Part shown: positions 1-58,056 of the stretch, one piece after another
Layout of the letters: the number at the start of each line of letters is the position of its first letter
Position numbering within the stretch: the stretch's first letter is position 1
Assembly (NCBI GenBank): GCA_944389595.1
Contig: CALXMY010000002.1
Span: 150,338 to 214,337 of the forward strand
DNA: 64,000 bases
Direction: 5' to 3'
DNA from: an uncultured Alphaproteobacteria bacterium
GTDB taxonomy: Bacteria > Pseudomonadota > Alphaproteobacteria > Rs-D84
Notes under the pieces: model-generated
The model's input: only the letters and a program-made list of their open reading frames with translations
What the model was told of the DNA's origin: nothing
Databases searched by the model: none
Translations under genes and position numbers: made by a program

Positions 1-724
1 ATATTAAATTATAATGTTCGTCACCTGTTTTGTCGGATAATGGGGCGCGTTTCTGTATGGCGGAATCTAACGCATCGGGGGATAATTTCTTTTTAAAATT
101 TGCATTTGTTAAATATTCAATGGTGTTTAATAAAAATCGTGCATCGCCATCGGCCATTTGCGCCAAATGCAGACGCGCGGCATCATCCAATGGTAATTTT
201 TTATTTAAAAATTTTTCGGCACGTGACATCAGTGTCATTAAATCTGATGTCCCCAGTGGTTGTAATACGCCGACATGGCATCGTGATAATAACGCATTGT
301 TTAAATTAAAACTGGGGTTTTCGGTGGTGGCACCCATGAACACCACTGTTCCATCTTCGAGATAGGGTAACAATGTATCCTGTTGTGTTTTATTGAACCG
401 GTGAATTTCGTCGATAAACAATAATGTTCCACGGCCAATCTCACGATTCATACGTGCGGCCTCCATCGCCTTTTTGATATCCGATGTTCCTGAAAATACC
501 GCAGACATTGGTACAAAATCCATATCAACCGATTTGGCCAATGCGCGCGCAATTGTCGTTTTGCCGCATCCCGGTGGGCCCCATAAAATCAGATTTGATA
601 ATTTATGATTATCAACCATTCGCCGAACCAATCCGTTTTCGCCCAATAATTGTGATTGACCCACAATTTCATCAATTGTTGATGGGCGCATTAAATCAGC
701 CAATGGTCTGTTTTCTGATTGCAT
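1..724 (-). CDS. rarA: Replication-associated recombination protein A (AAA+ ATPase RarA/MgsA), C-terminus runs off window start
   Basis: Reverse-strand translation MQSENRPLADLMRPSTIDEIVGQ...LWGPPGCGKTTIARALA (Walker A)...LFIDEIHRFNK (Walker B); ATG at 722-724. Confidence 0.85.
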   Translation of the reverse strand, partial: MQSENRPLADLMRPSTIDEIVGQSQLLGENGLVRRMVDNHKLSNLILWGPPGCGKTTIARALAKSVDMDFVPMSAVFSGTSDIKKAMEAARMNREIGRGTLLFIDEIHRFNKTQQDTLLPYLEDGTVVFMGATTENPSFNLNNALLSRCHVGVLQPLGTSDLMTLMSRAEKFLNKKLPLDDAARLHLAQMADGDARFLLNTIEYLTNANFKKKLSPDALDSAIQKRAPLSDKTGDEHYNLI

Positions 725-802
725 TTTATTGTTTTACTTGCGTTTTATTTAGTCTTTATTTGTGATATAATAAATCTTAGTAAATAAACATGGGGTTTTC
801 AA

Positions 803-1177
803 TTGGTAAGTGTAAATAAAGATTCGTCTGAATTTGCATTGGCGGTGGCGAATTTGGCCGCTGCGGCAATTGCGGCCAATCCGGCATTAAGCATGGACGA
901 TGCTGTGCGTGCCGCACGTGAAAGTTTGTGTGGCGTGTCGGTTAGTCCGCAACAAATTGCTGCGTCGGTTCAACCTGATAAAATTCAATGTCTGGAGGAT
1001 GGCACATGGCATGTCATGCTGCGGCGATATGTGCGTCGGAAATTTAATATGACACCGCAACAGTACAGAAAAAAATGGGGTTTGGGTGACGATTACCCAT
1101 TTGTTGCGCCGAATTATTCGCTGCGACGATCAAAAATTGCAAAGAAAACAGGACTGGGCAAAAAAAGGAAAAACTAA
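803..1177 (+). CDS. mucR: Ros/MucR family transcriptional regulator (TTG start)
   Basis: C-terminal ...CLEDGTWH...MTPQQYRKKWGLGDDYPFVAPNYSLRRSKIAKKTGLGKKRK matches the conserved Ros/MucR zinc-finger/C-terminal signature. Confidence 0.65.
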   Translation: MVSVNKDSSEFALAVANLAAAAIAANPALSMDDAVRAARESLCGVSVSPQQIAASVQPDKIQCLEDGTWHVMLRRYVRRKFNMTPQQYRKKWGLGDDYPFVAPNYSLRRSKIAKKTGLGKKRKN

Positions 1178-3108
1178 TGGCAGAAAAATTTCGAAAAGTT
1201 GTTGCAACTCCGGAACAGGCGACCGCAAAATTACGCAAAATAATTGAAAAAACGCATCCAGAAAAATATGTACGTGCACGTCGTACGGAAAAAAATGCTG
1301 ATGGTACGACTGGTCGATTTCCGGAATTAAATGATACCGTCGCAATTATGGGACTGGGGACGGCAAAATGGACTGCCTGGTTGGCGGCGGGTGGTGCCCA
1401 GTTTTTATTAACTTTGGCGCGGTGGATGACGATGGATAATGTGTTCCTGCGAAAAATGGAAAATCATTTCGCTGGGCGAAATGCTGGCAAACGGCGAAAA
1501 ACAACAAAATTATCGGCAATTGCAAAAAAGTATCCGAACGCATCGGCACATATTTTATGGTGGTTGGGATTGGCCGCGGTCGCAGGTGGTGGTTATTTTG
1601 GGACAGAAATCGCACCCGAAGTAATTACCCAGGTTAAAGAGTGGCAGAATGCGCGCGATGCAGAACGCTGGGCCGAGCAAGAAGCCCAGGGTACATATCG
1701 TGCGTTTTTAAATAAAATACGTCCGATTACACCGTTTATAATTGCTGATTTGATTGCCAAAGAAGGTGTGCATTTGGATGAACACGGACTGCATAAACCA
1801 TACCGGGATTCCAAGGGCGTGGCAACAATCGGATTTGGATCAACTGTGTTAAAAGATGGCAGTCGGGTTACAATGGATACTGCACCAATCACCACCGAAG
1901 AAGCATACGAATTGGCGCGGTGGCATTTGGAAGAGGCCGAAACTTATTTCGTTCTGTATTGTTATGATGTTGGATTGCAAAATGTAAATGTTAATACAAC
2001 CAGTGAAGCGTTTGGTATGAGTTCAATTATGTACAATACGTACGCTGATATAATTGAAAAACCAGACGATGAAAATTATCAAAACAGATTTGGTGAATTA
2101 AGAAAATTGCTGGATGAATATGGATATGCCGTGTCTGATGAACAAGTGCGACATGTGTTTGATAAATATCCCGTTACAAATTTAACCAGTTTTGGTGATG
2201 CTTGGATCAATGATTCTGATGCAAATATGATGGCTGATAAATTGGGTGAATTTTTGGCCGGTGGGCGCGGTATGCAATGGCGACGGTGGTTAGAGGCTGG
2301 ATTGCTGACCGGAAAGATAACGCCCCAGATGATGTTGGATTGTCCTGCGAATGGAATGTATGAATTTTACAAATATATGGGCAAAAAGAAGTCTGCATTT
2401 TTTACCGGTGCGGTTAATTCGCGCCAGGTTAATTTGGATACGTACGAAATATTCCAACAGTGGTTAAAAAATCCTGTGGATGAAAAGGGGCATTCACTGA
2501 CAAAGTGGAACAAAGTTGGCGATTGCCTGCCGGGCGATATATTGGCGTATTGTCAAAGTGGAGAATGCAAATTTGACAATAAAGATTTTAATAAGCATAT
2601 TGATAAACGTAAAAAAGTAGAATTGGAAACTTATACTTTGGGATATGATGCGCAGTATAAAAACGCAATCGCACAGTATAATGCGGGCGAATATGCGGGC
2701 GCGGCGCAATCTTTCCAAGATATGATAAAAAAATATCCAAACAATGCGTTGCTGCATAATGATTTGGCCGCGACTTATAACAAACTAGGTCAATATAATG
2801 ATGCTGTACAACAGGCGCGTGAAATACTGCATCGCATCGGGGATAAAAGCCAATATGCCGCGGCGCAATATAACGCAGGTGTCGCGTACGAGCAACTTGG
2901 CGATTATGACAGGGCGTTAATGAACTATAAATTATCCGTAAAAAATGGTAATTCGCGTGTGGCAAATGATGTGGCGCGTGTACAAAAAATGATAAGGGGC
3001 AAAACCATCGCGTTCCATGATGCGGCGGATAAATTAAATGTGAATGGTAAAACGTCTGGGGTTGATATAAATCAAGTCGTTAAACAATCCGGGCAAAAAC
3101 GGGTATAG
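1177..3108 (+). CDS. Membrane-anchored GH24 phage-type lysozyme-like domain protein with C-terminal TPR repeats
   Basis: Hydrophobic segment ILWWLGLAAVAGGGYF; lysozyme motif IAKEGVHL..KPYRDSKGVATIGFGST..ITTEEAYELARWHLEEA (T4L Glu/Asp/Thr-like positions); C-terminal TPR-like repeats (AIAQYNAGEYAGAAQSF...YNKLGQYNDAVQQA...); start overlaps mucR stop (TAATG). Confidence 0.55.
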   Translation: MAEKFRKVVATPEQATAKLRKIIEKTHPEKYVRARRTEKNADGTTGRFPELNDTVAIMGLGTAKWTAWLAAGGAQFLLTLARWMTMDNVFLRKMENHFAGRNAGKRRKTTKLSAIAKKYPNASAHILWWLGLAAVAGGGYFGTEIAPEVITQVKEWQNARDAERWAEQEAQGTYRAFLNKIRPITPFIIADLIAKEGVHLDEHGLHKPYRDSKGVATIGFGSTVLKDGSRVTMDTAPITTEEAYELARWHLEEAETYFVLYCYDVGLQNVNVNTTSEAFGMSSIMYNTYADIIEKPDDENYQNRFGELRKLLDEYGYAVSDEQVRHVFDKYPVTNLTSFGDAWINDSDANMMADKLGEFLAGGRGMQWRRWLEAGLLTGKITPQMMLDCPANGMYEFYKYMGKKKSAFFTGAVNSRQVNLDTYEIFQQWLKNPVDEKGHSLTKWNKVGDCLPGDILAYCQSGECKFDNKDFNKHIDKRKKVELETYTLGYDAQYKNAIAQYNAGEYAGAAQSFQDMIKKYPNNALLHNDLAATYNKLGQYNDAVQQAREILHRIGDKSQYAAAQYNAGVAYEQLGDYDRALMNYKLSVKNGNSRVANDVARVQKMIRGKTIAFHDAADKLNVNGKTSGVDINQVVKQSGQKRV

Positions 3109-5123: not shown

Positions 5124-5327
5124 TTATTGTCTGTATTGTTTTAAAATCCAAACGCGAATGGCGGCGGATAAATTTGTATCTGGGGTGCGATTGTCGTCAA
5201 TATGTTCAATTATTGATGCAACGGATTTATTTTGTATATGTGCCAAATCATGCAGCGCATCAATAAATTCAGGCTCCAGTGATATACTGGTTTGGTGACC
5301 CGATAAAGATACCGATATTTTTTTCAT
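5124..5327 (-). CDS. Ribbon-helix-helix (CopG-like) small protein
   Basis: MKKISVSLSGHQTSISLEPEFIDALHDLA...LSAAIRVWIL resembles the alphaproteobacterial RHH family; start overlaps stop of upstream gene. Confidence 0.5.
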   Translation of the reverse strand: MKKISVSLSGHQTSISLEPEFIDALHDLAHIQNKSVASIIEHIDDNRTPDTNLSAAIRVWILKQYRQ

Positions 5328-5794
5328 TATATTTTCCCCGCAGCCAGGCAATCCGATAATGCGCGCCATGCATCATCATACTTGCGCAATGGGTTTAATG
5401 TTAAATTATCAATCATAAAAAAGTTGCCAAACGAATCAAAAGAAAACCAAAATAAATCATTACGGCCAAAAACCGTATGTCCACGCAGACGTGAAAACCC
5501 GATTAAATCATTGTTTATTTTTTGAATTGATGGGAATAAAAATTTTGGTCCTTCCATTGCGTCGATTGTGCCAAATATATAACCATTCCCCAGATTTATT
5601 CCATTACATTGTGTATATAAATCAATCATTTGTTGGGGTAATATTGCCGAGCGCATATGTTGTAATGTGGTATTTGCAATTGCAACAGATTGTGGTGTGG
5701 CCGGTGGCGCGCACCACGCATTTTGTTTTTTTACAAATATCATAAATTCATCATGTGTCATTTTTTTATTGTCCGTTTCCACGTGCCGCAACAA
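5327..5794 (-). CDS. SUKH (Smi1/Knr4)-like protein, immunity-protein family candidate (alternative start at 5761)
   Basis: ILPQQMIDLYTQCNGINLGNGYIFG ... GRNDLFWFSFDSFGNFFMID ... DDAWRALSDCL matches the LP..Y..fl...NGg / ...gnylcfd / ..sFeefl pattern of SMI1_KNR4. Confidence 0.45.
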   Translation of the reverse strand: MLRHVETDNKKMTHDEFMIFVKKQNAWCAPPATPQSVAIANTTLQHMRSAILPQQMIDLYTQCNGINLGNGYIFGTIDAMEGPKFLFPSIQKINNDLIGFSRLRGHTVFGRNDLFWFSFDSFGNFFMIDNLTLNPLRKYDDAWRALSDCLAAGKI

Positions 5795-6278
5795 TTTGTG
5801 CCGCGATTTGGCTTAATCGGTCAGATGTTGCATTTCCGCCATCTCCCCCCGATGTTTCGTGTGATGTGACGTACACCTTTTTCGCAGGATTGGGCAGCCA
5901 TATTGTATCCGCCCCGGATTGTTCAATTATAAATGTATCCAAACGCCACGATTGCGGGAAAGTGCGGCACATGAACAAATTATTTAATTCCAATTTGCCG
6001 CCCCATACCAATGGAACCCGGAATCGTATGGATGTGTTTTGTGGCATTGCACGTCCCATAATCAGTGCCATGAATTCGTCCTGGGTCAGGCCCATGAACA
6101 TGGCCAACTCTTCGATTGAATCGGTTAATGATTCCATAAATTCATGACATAATTTTTTATATTTTAGAAACCAATCAGAATCCACACGCGTTGGTTTTGG
6201 GCGTATTTCCATTACCGGCATATCGTTCATATGCATATCAGATAAACGCTTTTGTGCAGATTCATGACTTAATTGCAT
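5766..6278 (-). CDS. Hypothetical protein (candidate toxin partner of the downstream SUKH-like gene)
   Basis: 170-aa ORF translationally coupled on both sides; no recognisable family. Confidence 0.4.
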   Translation of the reverse strand: MQLSHESAQKRLSDMHMNDMPVMEIRPKPTRVDSDWFLKYKKLCHEFMESLTDSIEELAMFMGLTQDEFMALIMGRAMPQNTSIRFRVPLVWGGKLELNNLFMCRTFPQSWRLDTFIIEQSGADTIWLPNPAKKVYVTSHETSGGDGGNATSDRLSQIAAQIVAARGNGQ

Positions 6279-7240
6279 TACATTTTACCCATATGTGTTA
6301 TGACGGCATCGATGTATTGCGAATATGCATCAAACATACCGTCATCGTCCGGTGGTATCGGTGGATTTGGATTTTGTTCCATATATTCACGTAACTCACC
6401 CATTGAATTAAATTTTAATATATCCTGAAATTCCGATGTGTCGGCATCGGGTGCGGTTATCGCAAAAGCGTTTATGTCAATATATGTTTCGTCCAATGTA
6501 TCTGTGAATATACCGCGGAATTTTTCAACTATGTTATGCACATCGGTTGTTTTAACACCAACGCATCCAATCCATATTGTTTGTTCGGTTCCAATCGCGG
6601 TCAGGGCAATTTGAATTCCATTTACACGTGGGGATGGTTTTATAACATATCCGGCGTTTGTAAATATTTCGCGCAATTCGGGCCAATTTTCTGTTTTTGT
6701 TGGCGTTGTTTGTATCACGGGCGTGGTACCAATCGGCGCATTTTGCGTTGCGGTGTGTGTGGCGCGTGGTGGCGCAGAATATTGATTGCCCAATGCTGAT
6801 GGCATTAATCTGGGTGGGCGTGCGGATGTCGATGGTGCCATTGTTTCAGATTGGGGTGACATTTGTGCAGGGTGCGTTTCCGTTGCCGGTATTTCCAATA
6901 CAGATGCGTCATTATCGGGTAATTCGTGCGCCGCTTTTTCAATATTGTTTTTTTCATGCGTGTTTTTTGATACGCGCATAATTGGTAATCTGATACGACG
7001 GGTGCGGGGACGTAACACCATGTATAGCCCCAATATGGTTATAAAAATTGTTACCGCAATTGATACATAAAAACCATTTTTAACCGGTGTTTGCGCCGCC
7101 TGTAGCGATGCGATGTATTCCCAGTGTGCCGCGGAAAATATGTTAAACCCAAATGCGGTGTTGAACCAAAAACTGGTGGCCAGTGTTACAGCCACCACCC
7201 ATAAAATACATATTAATATGTTGTCGGTACGTATTCTCAT
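6278..7240 (-). CDS. Hypothetical membrane protein with Pro/Thr-rich linker and C-terminal globular domain
   Basis: Two N-terminal TM segments, low-complexity P/T/S/A linker, conserved-looking C-terminal approx 130 aa; first gene of a 4-gene overlapping operon. Confidence 0.45.
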   Translation of the reverse strand: MRIRTDNILICILWVVAVTLATSFWFNTAFGFNIFSAAHWEYIASLQAAQTPVKNGFYVSIAVTIFITILGLYMVLRPRTRRIRLPIMRVSKNTHEKNNIEKAAHELPDNDASVLEIPATETHPAQMSPQSETMAPSTSARPPRLMPSALGNQYSAPPRATHTATQNAPIGTTPVIQTTPTKTENWPELREIFTNAGYVIKPSPRVNGIQIALTAIGTEQTIWIGCVGVKTTDVHNIVEKFRGIFTDTLDETYIDINAFAITAPDADTSEFQDILKFNSMGELREYMEQNPNPPIPPDDDGMFDAYSQYIDAVITHMGKM

Positions 7241-14632: not shown

Positions 14633-14707
14633 CGGAATGTACATAATTTTTGGAATTCATGGTTTTTTATGATATAATATATGGGACAGAACCATGGGGG
14701 ACAACCA

Positions 14708-15520
14708 ATGAATAATGACGACAATTTGGATTTATTGGATTTAAATGATGATACGGATGGTGCCGATTCGTTACCTGATGCCGCGCCATTGGCGGCACCA
14801 CGGCCAAAAAAACCGTGGTTGTTGCTGGGGGTTGGTGTATTAATAATTATATTGGCAACATATGTTATTATCCGTGTCGTTGGCGGTGATTCGTCATCTA
14901 CGATGGAAATTGATTTGGATGCACCGGCCGTTATTGTCGAGGGTGTTGATCCAAATGCGCCATTGGTTGTTGGAAATGCTGTCCCCGGGGCACCAGATGC
15001 AAATGTACCAAATGTGCCACCGGCACCCGCACCACAACCGGCGGTGGTTGCACCCGCGCCCGCGCCAGTGCCACAACCTGTTGTTCAAAATACCACGCCT
15101 GGGGTGCCCGTGCGTGTTATAGAGGACAGAAAGGAAGTAACGTTTAATCCGAATGTGGCGGTTGAAAAGCCGGCAAGCAAACCGGCGGCAAAACCAGTGG
15201 CCAAACCAAAAAATGTTGAAAAACCAGTGCGGCGTGCAAACGCACAAACGCAACGTGCACAAACTGCACCGGCCAGCGCGGCGTGGTATGCACAAATTGG
15301 ATCATACAGTACGCGTGCATTGGCGGAAAGTGGCCAACGGCAGTTAACCGCATCGCATAAATCACTGTTTTCCGGACATCAATTTGTAATTTTGGCGGCT
15401 GTTTTACCAAATGGAAAAAACACATACAGATTGCGTGTGGGATTTGATACATCGGCCGCGGCAAATAATTTCTGTCGTAATGCCAAGGCAGATGGTTTGG
15501 AATGCTATGTGACGAAATAA
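14708..15520 (+). CDS. SPOR domain-containing protein with Pro/Ala-rich linker
   Basis: TM helix LLLGVGVLIIILATYVII, P/A-rich repeats, C-terminal SPOR fold WYAQIGSYSTRALAE...YRLRVGFDTSAAANNFC...CYV; RBS gggggA 9 nt before ATG 14708. Confidence 0.7.
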   Translation: MNNDDNLDLLDLNDDTDGADSLPDAAPLAAPRPKKPWLLLGVGVLIIILATYVIIRVVGGDSSSTMEIDLDAPAVIVEGVDPNAPLVVGNAVPGAPDANVPNVPPAPAPQPAVVAPAPAPVPQPVVQNTTPGVPVRVIEDRKEVTFNPNVAVEKPASKPAAKPVAKPKNVEKPVRRANAQTQRAQTAPASAAWYAQIGSYSTRALAESGQRQLTASHKSLFSGHQFVILAAVLPNGKNTYRLRVGFDTSAAANNFCRNAKADGLECYVTK

Positions 15521-20560: not shown

Positions 20561-20863
20561 ATGGGCGAATCAAAAAAAATGTTACATATTGGGTTTGGTG
20601 CATTGTGTTTGGTGTTGATGTTGTCCGCGATTTTACAGGTTTGCTATCGTACACAAAACAGGGCGCGAAACCGTGTTCGCAACGCAATTGTCCAAACACA
20701 ACAGGATATTGCTGTTGCACAGGCTGATTTTGCATCATATGTTAGACCGGAAATTTTGCGTAATATGGTAACAAGTGTATACCCAAACGCCGAAACTATC
20801 AGTTTTCATAAACATGTGTCTGTGCACGATTTGCCGGCACGCAAAGTGGCATTGCAGCAATAA
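20561..20863 (+). CDS. ftsL: Cell division protein FtsL-like
   Basis: 100-aa bitopic protein (TM GFGALCLVLMLSAIL) immediately upstream of ftsI. Confidence 0.5.
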   Translation: MGESKKMLHIGFGALCLVLMLSAILQVCYRTQNRARNRVRNAIVQTQQDIAVAQADFASYVRPEILRNMVTSVYPNAETISFHKHVSVHDLPARKVALQQ

Positions 20864-22476
20864 TGTTTGAAATAGGTCGCGATATTTTTAAGCATGGGTC
20901 ATTAAACGCGTCAAGTGATAGACGTGGACATCGGCGTATGCGAATCGTTTATTATGTGTTTGTTGTTGCATTCGCAATTTTTGTTGTGCGCACATTGGCA
21001 TTGGGAATCGAAGGTACAGACAGGGCGCGACGTGCCGGGGCGGATGGTGCATGGACGGCCCAGCGTGCGGATATTATTGACCGAAATGGTGATATATTGG
21101 CAAAAAATATTATGTCGGGGCATATTACTTTGCGGCCGCCGTATGTTGAAAATCGTGATGCTGTGGCGCAAACTATACACCAAATTTTGCCATATGAATA
21201 TACATTGGCCCAGGCATTGAATTTGGTTAATTCGTCGCGTAAATTTATATATGTGAAAAAATATGCGTCTGATGATCAACGGACTGTTGTTGAAAAAGCA
21301 AAATTGCCCGGACTGGAAATCGAGGCAGAGCAAAAACGTCGGTACCCAAAACGCAGATTGTTTTCGCATATTATAGGATTTGTTGGGCGCGATGGATATG
21401 GGCTGGAGGGTATTGAACGTATATATAATGATTATTTGTCTGAAAATTCTGATCCGTTACAATTATCGTTGGATTCGCGAATTCAGGCGGTTTTTTATGA
21501 CCAATTAACAATCGCAATGCAAAAATATCAGGCACGCGCCGCGATGGGATTGTTGATGAATTCGCGCACAGGCGAAATGATTGCAATGGTTTCTTTGCCG
21601 GATTTTGACCCGGAAAACAGGGAACTGGACCCTGTATCAAATCGTATGTTTATGCCGTTGCGCGGGGTGTTTGAAATGGGATCTATATTTAAAATATTTA
21701 ACACCGCAATGGCCATGGAAAATGGCATAGACAAAGAATATTATGTGGCCGAACCGTTCCCAATTACTGACAAATTCGGTCGTGTTGTAAAACGTGTGCG
21801 TGATGTCAGCAGTTTTAAACCACCGCGACCAAATTTAAGCATAGAAGAAATTATGTTGCATTCATGTAATGCCGGCAGTGCGCAAATTGCGCTGGATTTG
21901 CCGGATGGCACGCAACAGGAATTTTTCCGGCGGTTACATTTTGATGAGCCATTGGAACTGGAATTTGGAACAACAGAGCGGCCATTGCCACCGGCAAAAT
22001 GGGGGCCTGTGGAACGCGCAACCGTATCATATGGGCATGGTATTTCTGTTACGCCAATGCATTTATTGTTGGCCGTAAATGCGATGACAAATGGCGGAAT
22101 TTATATTTACCCAACAATTTTAAAACGTGGGGTGGGGCCCGTTCGTGGGGAACGCGTGGTGTCCGATGAAATATCGGCACGATTGCGGAATATAATGTTT
22201 AATATTGCCGAACAAACCAGCGGTAAACAGGCCCGTGTTGCCGGAATACAAATTGGTGGTAAAACCGCCACGGCCGAAAAATATGGAAACAGTAAAAAAA
22301 ATCTGACGGCGTTTGCGGGTATCTTTCCGGTATCTGCACCACAGTATACAATTTTAGTTATATTGGATGAACCCAAAGGAACCAAAGAATCATTTGGTCT
22401 GCGTACTGCGGCGTGGAACGCCGTGCCGACAACGGGAAAAATTCTTGATAGTATACTGCCGTTGCTATTTGAATAA
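20863..22476 (+). CDS. ftsI: Peptidoglycan D,D-transpeptidase FtsI (PBP3)
   Basis: SIFK (SxxK), SCN (SxN), GGKTATAE (KTG) transpeptidase motifs; N-terminal TM. Confidence 0.8.
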   Translation: MFEIGRDIFKHGSLNASSDRRGHRRMRIVYYVFVVAFAIFVVRTLALGIEGTDRARRAGADGAWTAQRADIIDRNGDILAKNIMSGHITLRPPYVENRDAVAQTIHQILPYEYTLAQALNLVNSSRKFIYVKKYASDDQRTVVEKAKLPGLEIEAEQKRRYPKRRLFSHIIGFVGRDGYGLEGIERIYNDYLSENSDPLQLSLDSRIQAVFYDQLTIAMQKYQARAAMGLLMNSRTGEMIAMVSLPDFDPENRELDPVSNRMFMPLRGVFEMGSIFKIFNTAMAMENGIDKEYYVAEPFPITDKFGRVVKRVRDVSSFKPPRPNLSIEEIMLHSCNAGSAQIALDLPDGTQQEFFRRLHFDEPLELEFGTTERPLPPAKWGPVERATVSYGHGISVTPMHLLLAVNAMTNGGIYIYPTILKRGVGPVRGERVVSDEISARLRNIMFNIAEQTSGKQARVAGIQIGGKTATAEKYGNSKKNLTAFAGIFPVSAPQYTILVILDEPKGTKESFGLRTAAWNAVPTTGKILDSILPLLFE

Positions 22477-26957: not shown

Positions 26958-28253
26958 GTGAAAAAAATCTGGATTGGTTTTGCGGGTGTTTTTGTGCTGC
27001 TGGTTGCGGCATGTGATTTACAACCAAAAATATTGGCGTTGCCTGATACAGTTGGTGAATTTATTTCGTCGCGTTATCCGGCATTGTTGGCCGATCCGGA
27101 AACTGAACCAGAAATTTATAATGCCGCATCAATTGATTATGGCGTTTATGCATCGCCGACATTGTATGGCTCGGTTGGGAATTCTGATTATGTTGAATAT
27201 GCCAGTGTGAATGATTATATTGTTCCGCCACAAACGATCAGTGCAAGTGCCGCGGCAATGTATGGTGATGTGTCGTCTGTTGATTTTGGGGGCCAGATTG
27301 TAACCAGTCATACTGCCGGGGACGATTATTTGCGTGTACCAATGTATGGTGGAATGAAAACTGTGCAAACAACATCGGAAATAACAGTTGCCGCCGGTGA
27401 TACATTGTATTCATTGGCCCAGATGTATGGGACAACAGTTGATGAGTTGATAAATGAAAATAATTTATCTGCGCCGTTTACGTTATCGGTCGGACAAAAA
27501 TTAAAGGTGCCGGTGGAAACTGTTGCCAATGGTGTGCAAACTGTTACTGTGCCGGTTGCAGATGTGGATGTGGGCACCGCGACAAATACAAAAACACGTG
27601 TTGATTTAACGGAAATAACGGTTGCTGCCGGTGATACTTTATATTCTTTGTCACGGCGATATTCTGTTCCGGTCAATGATTTGGCGGTTATGAATAATTT
27701 ATCTGCGCCGTTTACGCTGTCGGTCGGGCAAAAATTAAAGGTGCCCAATTTGGCCGATGCACCGATTCGCACAACAAATGTGGTACAGGCCACATCATCG
27801 GGTACATCGACCGCCCAGCCAAAACAAAAAATTTCGTCGGACCCAACGCAAAAGCTACCGAAAATTAGCGCGCGTTCGTCATCAAAGTTTTCATGGCCGG
27901 TGCGGGGCAAGGTATTATCAGCATATGGTGCCAAGGGGGATGGTTTATTTAACGACGGAATTAATATTGCCGCTGTGCGGGGAACAGCTGTGGGGGCGGC
28001 CGAAAATGGTGTTGTTGCGTATGCCGGGAATGAAGTAAAAGGTATGGGAAACTTAATAATTATTCAACATTCTGGTGGATGGATGACCGTATATGCGCAT
28101 TTAGATTCAATGTCGGTACGTCGTGGAAACAAGGTATCTGTGGGACAAAAAATTGGCACAGTTGGTGAAACAGGCAAGGTTGATGAACCACAGTTACATT
28201 TTGAAATTCGTAAAGGAACCAAGGCGTATAATCCATCGTCTTATTTAAAATAA
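26958..28253 (+). CDS. nlpD: LysM-LysM-M23 peptidase lipoprotein (NlpD/EnvC-type murein hydrolase activator)
   Basis: Lipobox LVAAC; two LysM repeats (TVAAGDTLYSLA...LSVGQKLKVP); M23 domain GINIAA..G..V.A..NGVVAYAG...GNLIIIQH..G..TVYAHL. Confidence 0.75.
   Translation: MKKIWIGFAGVFVLLVAACDLQPKILALPDTVGEFISSRYPALLADPETEPEIYNAASIDYGVYASPTLYGSVGNSDYVEYASVNDYIVPPQTISASAAAMYGDVSSVDFGGQIVTSHTAGDDYLRVPMYGGMKTVQTTSEITVAAGDTLYSLAQMYGTTVDELINENNLSAPFTLSVGQKLKVPVETVANGVQTVTVPVADVDVGTATNTKTRVDLTEITVAAGDTLYSLSRRYSVPVNDLAVMNNLSAPFTLSVGQKLKVPNLADAPIRTTNVVQATSSGTSTAQPKQKISSDPTQKLPKISARSSSKFSWPVRGKVLSAYGAKGDGLFNDGINIAAVRGTAVGAAENGVVAYAGNEVKGMGNLIIIQHSGGWMTVYAHLDSMSVRRGNKVSVGQKIGTVGETGKVDEPQLHFEIRKGTKAYNPSSYLK
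27373..27745 (+). repeat. Near-identical tandem duplication of the LysM-coding module
   Basis: approx 27373-27510 and approx 27606-27745 share long identical nucleotide runs (aatttatctgcgccgtttacg...tcggtcgg.caaaaattaaaggtgcc). Confidence 0.7.
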
Positions 28254-42291: not shown

Positions 42292-42474
42292 AAAAACACC
42301 CCGTAATTTATTTTGTTATCGTTTTAGTATAGCATTTTTTAGCGATTCGTGCGATTTTATCTTTTGCATAAATTTTGTTAAAAAATCTGATGCGTTTTAG
42401 TCTTGCACAGATTCGGTCAAGTTGTTATAATAATACATAATAATATGATAACGCGTTCAGGAAAGGAAGTTTTT

Positions 42475-43557
42475 ATGTTCCGTAAATTTTTAATTGTTGC
42501 AATGTTGGCAACCGCTGCGGGCTATTGTTTCGCGGCTGAAAATCCACCCCAGGTTGTGACATCAGAAGTTTTTTATTCACAGCAACCGGTACAAACGGAT
42601 GCACAAAGTGCGCAGACATCGGATGAAAATGCCGCACAGCAAATTCCAGTGTGGCCGATTGCGGGCACCGATGCGGACATCGAAATTGCGTACGAGGGTA
42701 ATCCTTTGTCCGCCAGTGACAAGGACAATATTCGCATTGTGTCGAAAATAGGTGCCGATTTGGTTGTTGAAAATAATTTTAATTTAGGGTCCACGGCGGA
42801 CGGTGATTTTAATGGTTGGTCTGGGGGGGCAAATATGTTGCATGGTTCCCAGGTGCCGGCCGGATTTGATGACCCGTGCAACAGTGGAACTGAAATGCCG
42901 TTGCTGTCGCGTGAAATGTTGGAGGATGATGGCGGTTCGGTTTTGTCTGTTGCGCGCAGCAGTCGCCAGGATTGCAATAAATATCGCAATGGGTACGAGG
43001 CGTTTATGGCAAAAATCGGTATGAGCAAAGAGGAAATTGCCGCCGCAAACGATGCAAATACCAGTGTTTATATTGATTCCGATGGTAATACGGTGGAATT
43101 GGTCAGTGAAAAATATTATTTGAATACTGATGGAAATGTGGTTGACCGTGAAACAGATGAAGTGCAATTGGCATTATATGTTGATAATGATGGAAATGTG
43201 GTCGATCGCGTGACCGGGAATATTGTTGACAGAACAACGGCAAATATGGAAATTGCTGTGGATGTTAATGCGGACGAAGAGGCCCCAACCATTGTTTTAG
43301 ACCAGGTGCGTTCGTGGGTTGTTGCCAGTGGCCAAACTTTGCGCCAGGTTTTACAAGATTGGTGTAATAAAGAAGGATGGGATTTGGTTTGGGCGACATC
43401 ACGCGAATACCCAATAGAGGCCAGTGCCGTATTCAAGGGACGTTTTGTTGATGTGGCATCTGCGCTGGTGCGTAATTTTGCGCGCGCAACACCGATACCA
43501 TATGCTAAATTTTATAAGGGTAATCGTGTTTTGGTGATTTCAACAACCGAAGAATAA
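42475..43557 (+). CDS. Secreted protein, possible TcpQ/PilL-like secretin partner (tentative)
   Basis: Signal peptide MFRKFLIVAMLATAAGYCFAA; C-terminal domain TIVLDQVRSWVVASGQTLRQVLQDWCNKEGWDLVW... ; immediately upstream of lipoprotein secretin; RBS aggaaggaag. Confidence 0.35.
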   Translation: MFRKFLIVAMLATAAGYCFAAENPPQVVTSEVFYSQQPVQTDAQSAQTSDENAAQQIPVWPIAGTDADIEIAYEGNPLSASDKDNIRIVSKIGADLVVENNFNLGSTADGDFNGWSGGANMLHGSQVPAGFDDPCNSGTEMPLLSREMLEDDGGSVLSVARSSRQDCNKYRNGYEAFMAKIGMSKEEIAAANDANTSVYIDSDGNTVELVSEKYYLNTDGNVVDRETDEVQLALYVDNDGNVVDRVTGNIVDRTTANMEIAVDVNADEEAPTIVLDQVRSWVVASGQTLRQVLQDWCNKEGWDLVWATSREYPIEASAVFKGRFVDVASALVRNFARATPIPYAKFYKGNRVLVISTTEE

Positions 43558-43584
43558 TTACTCTTGCCGTAGGAGAAAAGAAGT

Positions 43585-45213
43585 ATGACCAACCCGATAA
43601 AATATTTTGTTATGTGTGCAATAATGGGGCTGAGTGTCGCGGGGTGCACAACAAAAGAATCTGCCAAGGTTGCGGCATCTGTTGACCAGGATTTTATTAA
43701 TGCATATGATGCGTTTGAAATGTCAAAAAATCCGCCGGCCAAGGTCGCCAGTGGTGATACTGTTACCATGTCCGAAGGTGTGTGGTTGGGTGCGTCGTCA
43801 ACGTTATTGGAACATCGTAATAATTTGCCGTCACAATTTGAATCCAATACCGGGATTACAATATTATTAAATGAACCGGTAACATTACAGGCATTGGCAA
43901 ACGATATTACGTCAATTACCAAAATTCCGGTAAAAATTGATAATCAAATTAATTCTGAAAAATTAAGAAAAACAATAAATGTTGCATATACAGGCAGCTT
44001 ATCAGGGTTGTTATCGCAAATCGCAACTGATTTAGATTTATTATGGTATTACGATAAATCCGCAATCGTTTTTTATGAAACAGAAACCAGAACGTTTACA
44101 TTATATGCATTGGGGACGGATGTTTCGTATCAAACCGCGGTTGAAACAGACGATGGAAATACAGTGTCGTTGGAATCCACATTAAAGGAATGGGATGAAA
44201 TTGAAAACGCGTTGGGTACCATCATCGGAAATGTTGATAATGCTAATTTTACAGTGTCGCGCAGTTTGGGGACAATTACTGTTACCGCGCCACCATCAAC
44301 ATTGGCACGTGTCGAAGATTATATTGCACGTCAAAATAGACGGTTGTCGCAATTGGTGACAATTGATGTAAAGGTTTTACAGGTGTCTGTATCCAATGAT
44401 TCGGCATTTGGATTGAATTTGGCGGCCGCGATTAATTCTGCGTCGGGGTTAAATATTGTTGCAAATCCGAAAAATAATTTAAGCAACACAGATGCCAGTT
44501 CAATGAATATTGCGGTTCTGTCAAATACGGTATCTGCGATGACGGGTGCCACGCACCAAGAAGGCAACAGCACTGTTTCAGGGGCATATACCCAGGATCA
44601 AATTAAAAATGGTTCGTTGTCTGGATTGGCGGGCACGGATGCATTGATTCAGGCACTGGCCAAGCAGGGCAAAGTGTCGTTGGTTACAAATGTTGGTGTT
44701 ACAACACGAAACAATCGGGTTGCGCCGGTAAATAATACGCGTACAACGGGGTATATCAAACGTTTTGAATCGCGTAACTTTACAACTGTGGAATCCAGCA
44801 CTGTTGACCAGGATGATTTGGAAACCGGTTTTTCAATGCAGCTGCTGCCCAATGTTTTGGAAAACGGCAAAATATTGTTGTTGTTCAGAATGTCGGTGCG
44901 TGAATTGCTGCGTATGCAGACACAAACAATTGGCGAAGTTACATTGCAATTGCCCGAGGTTGAAGAGCGCAGTTTCATGCAGGAAGTTATAATGGAATCC
45001 GGACAAATGTTGGTTGTTTCTGGTTTTGAAAAACAGGAAAACAACGACACGCGTTATGGATTGGGTGATCCGGACTTTATGGCGTTGTCTGGGTCGCGTG
45101 AAACATCGGCCACGCGTGATGTGTTGGTGGTTATATTGACACCCCAGGTATTGGTCAGTCCAATGGATGCAGAACGCACAATACAACAACATTGGGGGGC
45201 ACCGCTGAATTAA
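43585..45213 (+). CDS. Lipoprotein secretin (type IVb pilus / BfpB-TcpC-PilN-like)
   Basis: Lipobox LSVAGCTT; C-terminal secretin domain ...SGQMLVVSGFEKQENNDTRYGLGDPDFMALSGSRETSATRDVLVVILTPQVL (cf. DGqtvvlGGL..d...VPiLGDIP.LG.LF......ELLIFiTP.IV). Confidence 0.6.
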   Translation: MTNPIKYFVMCAIMGLSVAGCTTKESAKVAASVDQDFINAYDAFEMSKNPPAKVASGDTVTMSEGVWLGASSTLLEHRNNLPSQFESNTGITILLNEPVTLQALANDITSITKIPVKIDNQINSEKLRKTINVAYTGSLSGLLSQIATDLDLLWYYDKSAIVFYETETRTFTLYALGTDVSYQTAVETDDGNTVSLESTLKEWDEIENALGTIIGNVDNANFTVSRSLGTITVTAPPSTLARVEDYIARQNRRLSQLVTIDVKVLQVSVSNDSAFGLNLAAAINSASGLNIVANPKNNLSNTDASSMNIAVLSNTVSAMTGATHQEGNSTVSGAYTQDQIKNGSLSGLAGTDALIQALAKQGKVSLVTNVGVTTRNNRVAPVNNTRTTGYIKRFESRNFTTVESSTVDQDDLETGFSMQLLPNVLENGKILLLFRMSVRELLRMQTQTIGEVTLQLPEVEERSFMQEVIMESGQMLVVSGFEKQENNDTRYGLGDPDFMALSGSRETSATRDVLVVILTPQVLVSPMDAERTIQQHWGAPLN

Positions 45214-47324: not shown

Positions 47325-48353
47325 ATGACAGATAATGATTTATTTAAACGGTTATTGATTTTGCGTACGCCCGGTGTTGGGCCGGTGCGGTATCGTGAAT
47401 TAATCAAACAGTTTGGTGGTGTGGATGCGGCCGCCGATGCGGTTGAACAAAGCGATTCGATTCGTGATGCTGTTTTACGTGAAATTGAAAATGCCAAAAA
47501 ATTGAATGTATATTATATATGTGATGATATGCCCGAATATCCAATCCAATTGCGGAAATTAAAAAATCATCCGCCGGTGTTAAGTGTTCGTGGAAATATT
47601 ACAACTTTGTCACGACCAACGGTTGGAATCGTGGGCACGCGTCATGCAACAGCGGCGGGAATGGGGTTTGTGGCCGAATTGGCACAAAAATTTGCCGAAC
47701 ATAATATTGTGGTGGCATCTGGGATGGCGATGGGCACCGATACCGCGGCGCATCGTGGTGCGTTGCGGGCCAATGGTGAAAATCAAACAATTGCCATATT
47801 GGCGGGCGGGGTTGATTCAATATGGCCATTGGAAAACGAATCGCTGTATTGGGAAATTATTGCGCGTGGCGCGGTTATCAGTGAAATGCCGGTTGGGTTT
47901 GCGCCAATGGCACAAAATTTTGTTCAACGTAATCGATTAATCGCCGGAATCAGCGAAAAATTAATATTGGGCGAGGCTGATTTAAAATCGGGCAGTATGA
48001 CAACCGTGCGATTCGCAATACAGGCAAATCGGGAAATATGGGCAATACCGTCGCATCCGTCGGATTCCCGGGCCGCGGGGCCAAATTCATTGATAAAATC
48101 GGGCGCGGCAAGGTTGTGCAGTGGACAAAGTGATTTTTTTAAAAATGAAAAAAAGACATTCATAAATGTTAAAAATGAAAAAAATTTCGATTCGGAAAAT
48201 CCGATATTGGATGCATTAGGAATGATTCCTGTGTCTGAATCTGTATTGTCAGAAATTGTCAAAAAAACGATTTCGGAAATAAAGTCTGAATTGGTTGTTT
48301 TGGAATTACAGGGATTGGTGCGAAAAGTTGACGGTGGTTATGTTCGCGTGTGA
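47325..48353 (+). CDS. dprA: DNA processing protein DprA (Smf)
   Basis: Rossmann-like core VVASGMAMGTDTAAHRGAL ... ILGEADLKSGSMTTVRFA. Confidence 0.75.
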   Translation: MTDNDLFKRLLILRTPGVGPVRYRELIKQFGGVDAAADAVEQSDSIRDAVLREIENAKKLNVYYICDDMPEYPIQLRKLKNHPPVLSVRGNITTLSRPTVGIVGTRHATAAGMGFVAELAQKFAEHNIVVASGMAMGTDTAAHRGALRANGENQTIAILAGGVDSIWPLENESLYWEIIARGAVISEMPVGFAPMAQNFVQRNRLIAGISEKLILGEADLKSGSMTTVRFAIQANREIWAIPSHPSDSRAAGPNSLIKSGAARLCSGQSDFFKNEKKTFINVKNEKNFDSENPILDALGMIPVSESVLSEIVKKTISEIKSELVVLELQGLVRKVDGGYVRV

Positions 48354-52161: not shown

Positions 52162-54141
52162 TTATACGAATAAATCCTTTACAAATTGGGCATGTTCGGT
52201 GATGAATTTAAAACGAAATTCCGGTTTTTTACCCATTAATTCGGAAACAATTGTGCGGGTTTTTTCCGTATCTTCGGCACCGTCGTCCGTGCGCGGGGGT
52301 AATTCAACGCGTATTAATCGCCGCGTTTTTGGCGACATGGTTGTTTCCTTTAATTGATTTGGCATCATTTCACCCAGGCCCTTGAATCGTGAAATTTCAA
52401 CCTTTTTATTTTTATATTTTGTGGATTTTAATTGTTCCAATTCTTCGTCCGTATCGACATATACCGATTCGGTGCCGCATGTTAATTTATACAGTGGCGG
52501 ACACGACAGGTATAAATGGCCGCCATAGATTAACTGGGGCATAACCTGGTAAAAAAACGCCATTAATAATGATGCGATATGGCTGCCGTCGACATCGGCA
52601 TCGGTCATAACAATAATTTTTTCATAACGCAGTTTTGATTCGTCCCAATCACGTGCCGTGCCGGCACCAATGATATCAATTAATTCGTTTAATTCCTTGT
52701 TCGCGCTGAAACGTTCGTCGGAATTGGAAATAACATTTAACACCTTGCCGCGCAGGGGCATGATTGCCTGGGTCGCGCGGTCGCGTGCCTGTTTGGCGGT
52801 GCCGCCGGCCGATTCGCCCTCTACAATAAACAATTCGGTGCCGTCCACGCCATGTTTTGAACAATCCGCCAATTTGGCCGGCATGCGAATACGCTTGGTC
52901 GGGGTTTTGCGGGCAATTTCCTTGACCTGTTTGGTTTTTATGCGGGCGTTTGCCAAATTTATTACAAATTCCAATACGGCGTTTGCCGTTTTGGGATCAG
53001 ATGCCAAAAATATTTCCCACGGATCGCGCAGCGCGTTTTCCGTATAGCGCGCAATTTCGGGGTTTGACAGTTTTTCCTTGGTCTGGCCCAAAAATTGCGG
53101 TGTTTTATAAAATACGGATACAATCGCCGCAACGGAATCGAACACATCATCGCTGATTATATTGGCGGCGGATTTATTATTTATTTTATCGCCATATGAT
53201 TTTATTCCACGGGTAATCGCGGATTTAAAACCCGTTTCATGTGTGCCGCCATCAACAGTTGCAATGGTGTTGCAATATGATGCAAAGAATCCGTCATCGG
53301 ATGCCGCGCCATTTTCATCTGTTAAAAATGTTAATGCCCATTCAACACGGCCTGATGAATCCGGGAAATCAACCGTGCCACTGAAAATTTTTGGCAAGAT
53401 GCGCGGTTTGTCGCGGGTGCGTTCATCCAAAAAATCCGCCACGCCATTTGGGTAATAAAAATCTGTTTGCGCGGGAATATTCATATCGTCGGTTAATAAT
53501 TCCGGATTACAAATCCATTTTACGCGCACGCCGCGTGACAAAAATGATTTAGCACGCGCCATGCGATAAATTTTAACCGGTTTGAATACCGCGTTTATGC
53601 CGAATATTTCATCGTCCAATGTGAAACGAATTTTTGTGCCATGATTTTTTGTTGCATCCCCACGGGTCATACAACTGGTTGGTTTGCCGCGCGAAAAAGT
53701 TTGCCGCCATTCGTAACCATCGCGGGAAATTGTTACAATCATTTCAGATGACAGGGCGTTTACAACCGAACTGCCCACACCGTGCAGACCACCACTGGTT
53801 TTATACACATTATTATTAAATTTGCCACCGGAATGCAGTGTGGTTAAAATAACCTCCAGCGCGGATTTGCCGGGGAATTTCGGATGTTCATCAACCGGAA
53901 TGCCGCGACCATCATCGGTAATTTCAATTGTTTTGGCATCAATCAGGTTCACGGTGATATTTTTAGCATAGCCGGCAACAGCCTCGTCAATGGAATTGTC
54001 CAAAATTTCCACCGGTAAATGATGCCATGCCTTTTCATCTGTGCCGCCAATGTACATCCCAGGGCGCAGGCGAACCGGTTCCAGCCCTTCGAGTACCTGG
54101 ATATCTGATGCGTCATATGTATGTGTATTTTGTTCAGTCAT
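52162..54141 (-). CDS. parE: Type IIA topoisomerase B subunit, probably topoisomerase IV ParE (659 aa; lacks GyrB-specific insertion)
   Basis: GHKL ATPase N-terminus, EGDSAGG (EGESAGGT), Toprim PLRGK, DVDGSHI; length fits ParE rather than proteobacterial GyrB. Confidence 0.65.
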   Translation of the reverse strand: MTEQNTHTYDASDIQVLEGLEPVRLRPGMYIGGTDEKAWHHLPVEILDNSIDEAVAGYAKNITVNLIDAKTIEITDDGRGIPVDEHPKFPGKSALEVILTTLHSGGKFNNNVYKTSGGLHGVGSSVVNALSSEMIVTISRDGYEWRQTFSRGKPTSCMTRGDATKNHGTKIRFTLDDEIFGINAVFKPVKIYRMARAKSFLSRGVRVKWICNPELLTDDMNIPAQTDFYYPNGVADFLDERTRDKPRILPKIFSGTVDFPDSSGRVEWALTFLTDENGAASDDGFFASYCNTIATVDGGTHETGFKSAITRGIKSYGDKINNKSAANIISDDVFDSVAAIVSVFYKTPQFLGQTKEKLSNPEIARYTENALRDPWEIFLASDPKTANAVLEFVINLANARIKTKQVKEIARKTPTKRIRMPAKLADCSKHGVDGTELFIVEGESAGGTAKQARDRATQAIMPLRGKVLNVISNSDERFSANKELNELIDIIGAGTARDWDESKLRYEKIIVMTDADVDGSHIASLLMAFFYQVMPQLIYGGHLYLSCPPLYKLTCGTESVYVDTDEELEQLKSTKYKNKKVEISRFKGLGEMMPNQLKETTMSPKTRRLIRVELPPRTDDGAEDTEKTRTIVSELMGKKPEFRFKFITEHAQFVKDLFV

Positions 54142-57591: not shown

Positions 57592-58056
57592 ATGAAATAT
57601 GAATCTGGACGTTCAATGATTGAAATGATGGGTGTTTTGGCCATTATGGGGGTTATTACCGTTGCCGCAATTGCCGCAATTTCCAGCGCGATGAATATAC
57701 AAAAGCGTAACGAGGTTAATGACCAGGTTTTACAAATGGTGACCCAGGTACGTCAACTGTTCACGGAATATGACGATTTTTCAAACATAAATAGTGCGAC
57801 TATATTTGGTGCAATTGGAATGTCTAATCAAAATCCGTATGGTGGAACATATGAAATATCTGTGAATCCGGCTGATACGCGGCAATTTGTTGTTTCAATA
57901 ACGGGGTTGTCGCAATCTGATTGTGAACATTTTGTAATCAAGGGATGGAATGGTTCGGTCGGTTATGAAATGTCGGGGCATACACAAAGTGGTGCCAGCG
58001 GCACATGTACAAATCCAAATGGGCAAAATGTTGTCCAAATAACATATGGCGAATAA
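57592..58056 (+). CDS. Type IV pilin / pseudopilin-like protein (prepilin-type N-terminal cleavage/methylation domain)
   Basis: MKYESG|RSMIEMMGVLAIMGVITVAAIAA: class III signal with Gly(-1), Glu(+5) and hydrophobic alpha1-N helix. Confidence 0.6.
   Translation: MKYESGRSMIEMMGVLAIMGVITVAAIAAISSAMNIQKRNEVNDQVLQMVTQVRQLFTEYDDFSNINSATIFGAIGMSNQNPYGGTYEISVNPADTRQFVVSITGLSQSDCEHFVIKGWNGSVGYEMSGHTQSGASGTCTNPNGQNVVQITYGE

Follow-up and report, generated by a model that had tools for sequence, protein, structure and literature searches.

A candidate membrane-tethered GH24 lysozyme with a built-in TPR module, encoded by a conserved core gene of the alphaproteobacterial Rs-D84 lineage

We analysed a 64,000-nucleotide stretch (hereafter the window) of the genome of an uncultured alphaproteobacterium of the Rs-D84 lineage (Candidatus Enterousia group; assembly GCA_944389595.1, contig CALXMY010000002.1, positions 150,338 to 214,337) and focus here on lysTPR, a 643-residue protein encoded directly downstream of a Ros/MucR-family gene. 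Our results support a model in which lysTPR is probably a domesticated phage-type GH24 lysozyme, very likely with a periplasmic muramidase domain whose catalytic residues are intact, to which lineage-specific segments and a C-terminal tetratricopeptide repeat (TPR) module have been added. We think it fairly probable that the protein is a housekeeping muramidase tethered to the inner membrane, with the TPR module as a built-in adaptor, and that it acts as a resident autolysin in wall growth or division. GH24 enzymes, TPR modules and MucR proteins are each well known already; the novelty lies in the architecture, the lineage-specific additions and the status of the gene as a conserved core gene in an uncultured, genome-reduced order. 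Literature searches for a MucR–lysozyme operon or a GH24–TPR enzyme returned nothing relevant. A sequence-only reading of the window had placed a Ros/MucR-family gene immediately 5' of the 643-residue open reading frame (ORF), with a TAATG overlap, and had recognized a phage-type lysozyme core with Glu, Asp and Thr in the product. Both ORFs and the quoted motifs are present, and the lysozyme core withstood checks of fold and of conservation.

The lysozyme fold is seen by both profile and structural comparison. The Pfam Phage_lysozyme family (PF00959) gives a partial match (28.4 bits against a cut-off of 22.3; aa 206–259, model positions 8–56 of 125), and profile–profile comparison by hhalign with an alignment of 34 phage lysozymes extends over 99 columns with a probability of 99.8% (E = 2e-28), pairing E196, D211 and T217 with E16, D25 and T31 of P22 lysozyme. 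AlphaFold2, supplied with 30 orthologues, gave a predicted local distance difference test (pLDDT) score above 85 over aa 170–610, and a domain-only model of aa 165–485 reached a pLDDT of 91 and a predicted template-modelling (pTM) score of 0.89. When the structure was compared with the PDB by Foldseek, the top 14 matches were all GH24 (probability 0.99–1.00, target TM-score 0.43–0.70); the matches include the FAHEc1 endolysin (7M5I), AbLys1 (8APP), P22 lysozyme (2ANV), PHAb10, PHAb11, R21 of phage 21 (3HDE) and a fungal GH24 enzyme. The GH24 alignments run over roughly 190–206 columns and cover the whole targets, and thus take in both lobes, including the C-terminal helical lobe. A search of a viral structure library agrees. 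Structure prediction, which had been proposed as the check on the lysozyme assignment, therefore returned the expected fold.

Conservation follows the active site. In the 30 orthologues (45–90% identity), K195-E196-G197, D211 and T217-I218-G219 are invariant, so that all three catalytic positions named in the sequence-only reading are fixed among them. W368-R-R-W-x-E373 is also invariant and by eye matches GL..RR..E, a C-terminal motif of GH24 domains. Across family representatives drawn from a library of 1.84 billion proteins, no representative lacks the Thr, those that span the site all retain the Glu, with the exception of one split alignment, and nearly all retain the Asp; in a few distant members the Asp is replaced by C, S, I or N. 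Column identity is highest in the GH24 core (0.79–0.85), followed by the TPR module (0.70), the insertion and extension described below (~0.62), the N-terminus (0.48) and the tail (0.34). We considered loss of the canonical catalytic Glu, because one HMMER alignment set the phage "EG" opposite a variable xG204, and rejected it on the hhalign result. Six residues are inserted between the Glu and the Asp, as also occurs in some phage lysozymes, and since several phage lysozymes share an insertion between "EG" and "PYxD", the register of the Glu is that of E196. From residues and modelled fold together, muramidase activity is the function we would predict for the domain.

Two family-specific segments enlarge the domain: a helical insertion of ~60 residues and an extension of ~105 residues that packs on the lysozyme domain in the AlphaFold2 model. 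Neither is matched by any structure in the PDB or the viral library, and the extension has no Pfam match; query TM-scores never exceeded 0.40 in either structural search. In an exhaustive profile search, 46 cluster representatives matched at E < 1e-30, most of them (fragments excepted) spanning the whole 321-position domain, and below that level the matches dropped to ordinary phage lysozymes of ~150 residues that align only with about aa 195–295. By these profile comparisons lysTPR is a sharply bounded, lineage-specific and uncharacterised family, and a cluster look-up returned no useful names for it. Within the extension, Cys459 and Cys464 mostly co-occur or are both missing across the library representatives. 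This co-variation fits a periplasmic disulfide, which we regard as probable.

The C-terminal module is a genuine TPR domain, as predicted from the sequence alone, but at ~110 residues (aa 489–605) it is shorter than the ~200 residues first proposed. Within aa 490–590 the module matches the Pfam families TPR_19 (32.4 against a cut-off of 25), TPR_17, TPR_12 and TPR_6, each above its cut-off, and Foldseek aligns the module with designed CTPR3 proteins at a root-mean-square deviation of 1.7–2.7 Å and a target TM-score of 0.77–0.85 over ~116 columns. In NCBIfam, the TPR matches of lysTPR were all sub-threshold (the best being YbgF, below its cut-off), and there was a faint match to a BaGTA endolysin model.

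For the membrane anchor, a single hydrophobic helix had been proposed; membrane anchoring holds up, but there are two weakly hydrophobic segments, H1 (aa 55–86) and H2 (aa 124–146), both Gly/Ala-rich with Kyte–Doolittle values of about 1.0–1.15. H1 is conserved, and the basic segment that precedes it contains a conserved MxEKFRKIV..PE motif. AlphaFold2 renders the region as helical with a pLDDT of 60–78. Averaged over the 30 orthologues, the N-terminus has a net charge of +6.2, the H1–H2 loop one of +5.3 and the segment after H2 one of −0.6. By the positive-inside rule, this distribution would place the N-terminus and the loop in the cytoplasm and the enzyme in the periplasm, with H1 in or on the membrane but not crossing it. 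We infer that aa 1–123 are cytoplasmic or membrane-associated and that H2 is a transmembrane anchor with its N-terminal end inside and its C-terminal end outside. Relatives with a short N-terminus lack the long region and have, at the equivalent place, a single N-terminal signal anchor or a lipobox; in these proteins the lysozyme domain is extracytoplasmic. Two observations weigh against the periplasmic placement in the long-N-terminus clade, namely the low hydrophobicity of H1 and H2 and the rendering of H1 by AlphaFold2 as a single long helix. Given these, proteins of this clade could be two-pass, in which case the enzyme would be cytoplasmic.

The mode of attachment varies within the family. 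In P0146, P0124 and P0160, a lipoprotein-type signal or a plain signal peptide replaces the long N-terminus; the signal of P0146 is of the lipoprotein type and ends in LVTGVAGC, and that of P0160 looks cleavable.

The gene is widely distributed within one lineage. In a word-indexed search, 217 full-length homologues were recovered, none with a functional name and all from metagenomes or metagenome-assembled genomes. Scanning one genome per species gave 77 loci, one per species-level genome, which are labelled Candidatus Enterousia, uncultured Alphaproteobacteria or "Rickettsiales" and come from human, chicken, ruminant and other guts. Genomes of Rs-D84 and Candidatus Enterousia measure ~0.75–1.0 Mb and lack flagella, respiration and parts of glycolysis; the lineage is also without standard transporters, encodes RodA, MreB and MrdA, and has been proposed to lead a partner-dependent life with possible intercellular connections (PMC12306168). 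The order rarA (minus strand), then mucR, the lysozyme gene and ybeY::lnt (all plus strand), is found in about 70 of the 77 loci, so the mucR–lysozyme pair, whose presence in relatives had been suggested as a check, is indeed kept. Five loci lack mucR, and in these rarA directly adjoins the lysozyme gene. The most stable neighbour is rarA: nearly every locus has it next to the lysozyme gene, as do distant relatives without mucR; in one of these (L079) the rarA–lysozyme pair occurs without mucR or ybeY::lnt. lysTPR is thus a vertically inherited chromosomal core gene of the Rs-D84 lineage.

Two further relatives depart from the standard arrangement. In locus L083 (2203–6366), two lysozyme genes stand between mucR and ybeY::lnt, of which the first (412 aa) lacks the TPR module and the second (516 aa) has it. 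We considered this as a "Rosetta-stone" split of lysozyme and TPR and rejected it: the second gene also carries a lysozyme domain, which points to tandem duplication. The most divergent member of the family (L078, 3592–6626) has 541 residues, a single N-terminal anchor and Asn in place of the catalytic Asp. Its gene is divergent from an adjoining gene for an AMIN–Amidase_3 (AmiC-like) cell-division amidase, with no mucR, rarA or ybeY::lnt nearby, and this neighbour suggests a link to wall metabolism.

Co-transcription of mucR and lysTPR is very probable. The rarA–mucR intergenic region contains an extended −10 element, TGATATAAT, which together with a T-rich motif upstream of it is conserved in all 66 loci compared, and in loci without mucR the element is kept directly 5' of the lysozyme gene. 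From this sequence conservation we presume it to be the promoter of a mucR–lysTPR–ybeY::lnt unit. A generic promoter and terminator scan gave counts near the shuffled expectation and did not list this element, because it has no −35 element. Within the unit, the junctions are −1 and +4 nt: the final A of the mucR TAA stop doubles as the first base of the lysTPR ATG, which has an AGGA motif 7 nt upstream, and ybeY::lnt starts 4 nt past the lysTPR stop.

The TAATG overlap had been read as translational coupling. The overlap itself stands, but the case for functional coupling is weak. Among 57 related loci with defined ends, the distance from mucR stop to lysozyme start ranges from −17 to +14 nt, purine-rich motifs lie upstream of the junctions, and the exact TAATG junction occurs in only 4; several relatives, moreover, keep the lysozyme gene without mucR. 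A crude longest-ORF gene set of the window contains 46 pairs of same-strand neighbours, of which 15 overlap or abut, and coding density is ~94%. As overlap is the usual state of so compact a genome, it is no evidence of a special functional bond between mucR and the lysozyme gene; it permits translational coupling, but mainly reflects genome compaction. Co-transcription is better supported than functional coupling, because the promoter is conserved in all 66 loci and is reused for the lysozyme gene where mucR has been lost.

The upstream protein belongs by homology to the Ros/MucR family, as judged from its match to ROS_MUCR (PF05443; 88.8 bits against a cut-off of 25.4, E = 3.7e-25, aa 45–119) and to Ros87 (2JSP; E = 2e-17 over the DNA-binding domain), but is a variant without three of the four zinc ligands. 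The positions of Ros87 C24, C27, H37 and H42 are occupied by C63, D66, Y76 and F81, and this C/D/Y/F(Y) pattern recurs in all 69–70 MucR copies of the lineage, 46 of 69 of which start with TTG. The protein keeps the basic C-terminal tail and hydrophobic N-terminal region seen in Ros87 and Brucella MucR, but, unlike the Ros/MucR zinc-finger proteins, has Cys-Asp-Tyr-Phe in place of Cys2His2 throughout Rs-D84. In this it resembles zinc-free Ros homologues that have reportedly been described in Mesorhizobium loti. MucR proteins are now regarded as H-NS-like nucleoid-structuring silencers (PMC10746212), and in a genome of ~900 genes MucR is probably a general chromatin protein or global regulator. 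The suggestion that it is a regulator of the virulence or symbiosis type does not fit this H-NS-like character, the altered zinc ligands or the organism, a genome-reduced gut bacterium that is either a commensal or dependent on a partner (PMC12306168).

Comparison with known systems places lysTPR closest to phage endolysins in its catalytic domain and apart from each of the systems compared in its architecture. With the P22/T4-type GH24 endolysins (P22 gp19, 2ANV; 7M5I; 8APP; R21, 3HDE) it shares the two-lobe fold, the Glu/Asp/Thr set, the YxDxxGxxTIGxG motif and the C-terminal RR..E. Those endolysins have ~150–190 residues and are encoded in lysis cassettes, whereas lysTPR is chromosomal, syntenic across a bacterial order and larger by the ~60-residue insertion, the ~105-residue extension, the TPR module and a cytoplasmic or membrane N-terminal region of ~145 residues. 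As in signal-anchor-release (SAR) endolysins such as P1 Lyz and R21, the anchor of lysTPR consists of weakly hydrophobic helices rich in Gly and Ala; unlike in these, the helices are preceded by 50–120 conserved residues and followed by a linker of ~40 residues, and there is no holin or phage context, so lysTPR does not belong to the SAR type. In E. coli, NlpI, CpoB/YbgF and LpoA are separate TPR adaptors of peptidoglycan enzymes. The resemblance lies in a short periplasmic TPR module beside a wall-modifying activity, but in lysTPR the module is fused to the hydrolase, and there is no specific homology beyond generic TPR. The expectation that lysTPR is not a standard housekeeping lytic transglycosylase was borne out: it has no Pfam match to SLT, 3D/MltA, YceG or DPBB, unlike Slt, MltA, MltB, MltG and RlpA, and its catalytic domain is GH24. 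No SLT, MltA, YceG or DPBB domain was found among the other window ORFs scanned. Brucella abortus SagA and Salmonella Typhi TtsA are cell-encoded T4-type muramidases for which an inner-membrane tether that keeps cleavage local has been proposed (PMC8334348). lysTPR resembles them as a non-phage, cell-encoded predicted muramidase with the T4-type Glu/Asp/Thr and a probable inner-membrane tether. However, SagA has a C-terminal anchor, a distinct peptidoglycan-binding C-terminal domain, no TPR, and links to the VirB type IV secretion system and the PhiA inhibitor, whereas lysTPR has an N-terminal anchor, a TPR module and no linked secretion genes, and is not of the SagA/TtsA type.

These observations are consistent with a model in which transcription from the extended −10 promoter yields a mucR–lysTPR–ybeY::lnt message, on which the tight mucR junction would allow translational coupling. 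The basic N-terminal ~120 residues would remain in the cytoplasm, with the conserved H1 in or on the membrane, and may tie the enzyme to cytoplasmic partners. H2 would cross the inner membrane, and a helical linker would then hold the enlarged GH24 domain in the periplasm. There, by analogy with T4 and P22 lysozymes, Glu196 would serve as the acid and Asp211 and Thr217 would hold the attacking water in place, so that bonds between N-acetylmuramic acid and N-acetylglucosamine (MurNAc-GlcNAc) within reach of the tether would be cleaved. The three-repeat TPR module could dock the enzyme on a partner, whether a synthase, a lipoprotein or another hydrolase, and such docking would confine cleavage to sites of wall growth or division, a role comparable to that of the E. 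coli adaptors NlpI, CpoB and LpoA. Fold, conserved residues, gene order, promoter motif and, in relatives, an extracytoplasmic location are observed here; enzymatic activity, the topology of the long N-terminus, the housekeeping role and the existence of a TPR partner are predictions of this model.

Several other explanations must be weighed against a resident autolysin. The sequence-only reading had suggested an enzyme for envelope-spanning machinery, and in its most specific form lysTPR would be a specialised "space-making" muramidase for a type IV pilus or competence-like machine, analogous to Brucella SagA for its type IV secretion system and to Salmonella TtsA. SagA is likewise a membrane-tethered muramidase of the T4-lysozyme type (PMC8334348). 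Genes for a TcpQ-domain protein, a secretin, DprA and a weakly matching pilin-like protein occur in the window, and part of such a machine could serve as a docking site for the TPR module. Yet no secretion or pilus genes adjoin lysTPR, whose neighbours are rarA, mucR and ybeY::lnt; the only secretin and TcpQ genes of the window lie at a distance of ~40 kb, and in none of the related loci examined are such genes linked to the lysozyme gene. The lineage also lacks flagella (PMC12306168), anchor position and domain composition differ from those of SagA and TtsA, and neither of their structures is among the top 50 fold matches, so we consider this role unlikely. Alternatively, lysTPR might be directed at a partner cell, released or presented at a contact site where it breaches the partner's wall, or the cell's own wall at an intercellular connection. 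Such a function would suit a lineage that lacks glycolytic steps, respiration and standard transporters and for which partner dependence has been proposed (PMC12306168). The likeness of the anchor helices to the releasable signal-anchor domains of phage 21 and P1-type endolysins, with R21 (3HDE) itself among the fold matches, and the large lineage-specific additions without known function point the same way. However, no export signal is visible beyond the inner-membrane anchor, and the gene has no linked system of the kind required for passage through the outer membrane. The N-terminus, long, conserved and cytoplasmic, points to a resident membrane protein, and the operon partners are housekeeping genes. 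We regard the partner-directed function as improbable. The earlier suggestion of a secreted effector is not supported either, given the basic N-terminus with an internal anchor and the relatives with signal anchors or a lipobox.

The protein could also be a catalytically inert, lysozyme-like scaffold that binds peptidoglycan or regulates, recruiting or controlling wall enzymes through its TPR and cytoplasmic domains. At the sequence level GH24 profiles match only the N-terminal lobe, and both the Glu–Asp insertion and the replacement of the Asp in a few distant members might be taken in its favour. Ordinary phage lysozymes have the same insertion, however, the Glu and Thr are retained in all representatives spanning the site and the Asp in nearly all, and the catalytic lobe is the best-conserved region of the protein, which together make an inert scaffold quite doubtful. 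Least probable by far is a remnant prophage or gene-transfer-agent endolysin for programmed lysis. The nearest sequences and structures outside the family are indeed phage endolysins, and the faint BaGTA match would agree with such an origin, but no holin, spanin or structural phage genes lie nearby, the gene occupies the same position beside rarA and ybeY::lnt in about 70 species-level genomes, and the protein exceeds an endolysin fourfold in size, with its added domains conserved. Searched against PHROGs, the locus gave only one match, the lysozyme itself, and we rejected a prophage origin of the locus given its fixed synteny and lack of phage genes.

A more far-reaching version of the domestication model has, in our view, a rather low probability. 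Here Rs-D84 would have rebuilt a phage endolysin during genome reduction into its principal glycan cleaver, with a cytoplasmic N-terminal domain, a catalytic elaboration of ~165 residues and the TPR module. Its cytoplasmic tail would link the cutting of the wall to the cytoskeleton or divisome, and the MucR without its zinc ligands, a nucleoid protein, would set expression. Alternatively, the enzyme would open the wall at contact sites with a partner cell. If either form were true, the lineage would have its own defining way of turning over peptidoglycan in a minimal alphaproteobacterial cell. If lysTPR is instead simply the tethered housekeeping muramidase that we favour, a phage-type lysozyme has become fixed as a core envelope enzyme across an order of genome-reduced gut Alphaproteobacteria, with hydrolase, membrane tether and docking module in one polypeptide where model bacteria use separate proteins. 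It would then offer a compact system for studying the spatial restriction of wall cleavage and a possible marker or target for a widespread uncultured gut lineage, and would have no bearing on virulence or symbiosis regulation.

The features of the locus and of the wider window are collected in Table 1. Family scans of neighbouring ORFs found no phage, holin or secretion genes near lysTPR. Besides the genes in the table, the scanned window ORFs are housekeeping, among them trmB, GNAT, gltX, HlyIII, thrS, recJ, lolA, tatC, gatA/gatB, the suf genes, plsY, dnaJ, uvrC, an AsmA-like protein, ppa and efp. The presence of dnaA, gyrB and dnaN indicates that the window lies near or probably spans the chromosomal replication origin region. 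The TcpQ, secretin, DprA and pilin-like ORFs suggest a type IV pilus, competence-like or DNA-uptake apparatus in a genome of less than 1 Mb.

Table 1. Features of the lysTPR locus and selected genes of the window (coordinates are those of the 64,000-nucleotide window).
Feature	Coordinates	Strand	Basis or remark
rarA/mgsA (AAA+ recombination protein), divergent	1..724	-	translation contains GPPGCGKTT; continues past window edge
presumed extended -10 promoter TGATATAAT, rarA–mucR intergenic	763..771	+	TGnTAnAAT at homologous position, 66/66 loci
mucR, Ros/MucR-family DNA-binding protein, 124 aa, TTG start	803..1177	+	Pfam PF05443; Ros87 (2JSP)
mucR/lysTPR junction: AGGA Shine-Dalgarno-like 1166–1169, mucR TAA 1175–1177, lysTPR ATG 1177–1179	1166..1179	+	read from sequence
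lysTPR, 643-aa ORF, ATG start	1177..3108	+	ORF list, Pfam
N-terminal region, aa 1–123: basic helical segment, H1 (aa 55–86), strongly basic loop (aa 87–123)	1177..1545	+	hydropathy, charge, AlphaFold2
H2, predicted anchor, aa 124–146, AHILWWLGLAAVAGGGYFG...	1546..1614	+	Kyte–Doolittle 19-residue window 1.15, best in protein
GH24 (phage T4/P22-type) lysozyme fold, aa ~184–380	1726..2316	+	hhalign, Foldseek, AlphaFold2
catalytic triad codons: Glu196 1762–1764, Asp211 1807–1809, Thr217 1825–1827	1762..1827	+	alignment to P22 lysozyme
helical insertion in GH24 domain, ~60 aa, aa 296–355	2062..2241	+	family-specific
lineage-specific extension, ~105 aa, aa 381–485, packed on lysozyme domain; C459/C464	2317..2631	+	AlphaFold2 model
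TPR module, three repeats and capping helix, aa 489–605	2641..2991	+	Pfam, Foldseek
low-confidence, poorly conserved tail, aa 606–643 (~38 residues)	2992..3105	+	AlphaFold2, column identity
ybeY::lnt, YbeY endoribonuclease fused to apolipoprotein N-acyltransferase (Lnt), 667 aa	3113..5116	+	Pfam and NCBIfam
SPOR-domain protein (wall-related)	14681-15520		
class B penicillin-binding protein (wall-related)	20863-22476		
LysM-M23 protein (DipM/NlpD-like; wall-related)	26958-28253		
TcpQ-domain protein and secretin, side by side	42403-45213	+	
DprA	47325-48353	+	
dnaA	48721-50076		
gyrB	52162-54141	-	
weak pilin-like (N_methyl) ORF	57592-58056	+	
dnaN	61291-62409		

Two further observations concern the region downstream of lysTPR. 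The ybeY::lnt gene, with functions in ribosome maturation and the envelope, joins an RNase to a polytopic membrane acyltransferase, an odd pairing, and in 74 of 75 related loci both parts lie in one frame with no intervening stop. Beyond it lies a convergent block of four genes (5124–7240, minus strand) that encodes an RHH_4 protein of 81 aa, a weakly SUKH/SMI1-like protein of 155 aa and two proteins of 170 and 320 aa without a family match, the larger of which is Pro-rich in its middle. The same block also follows ybeY::lnt in a distant relative (L081).

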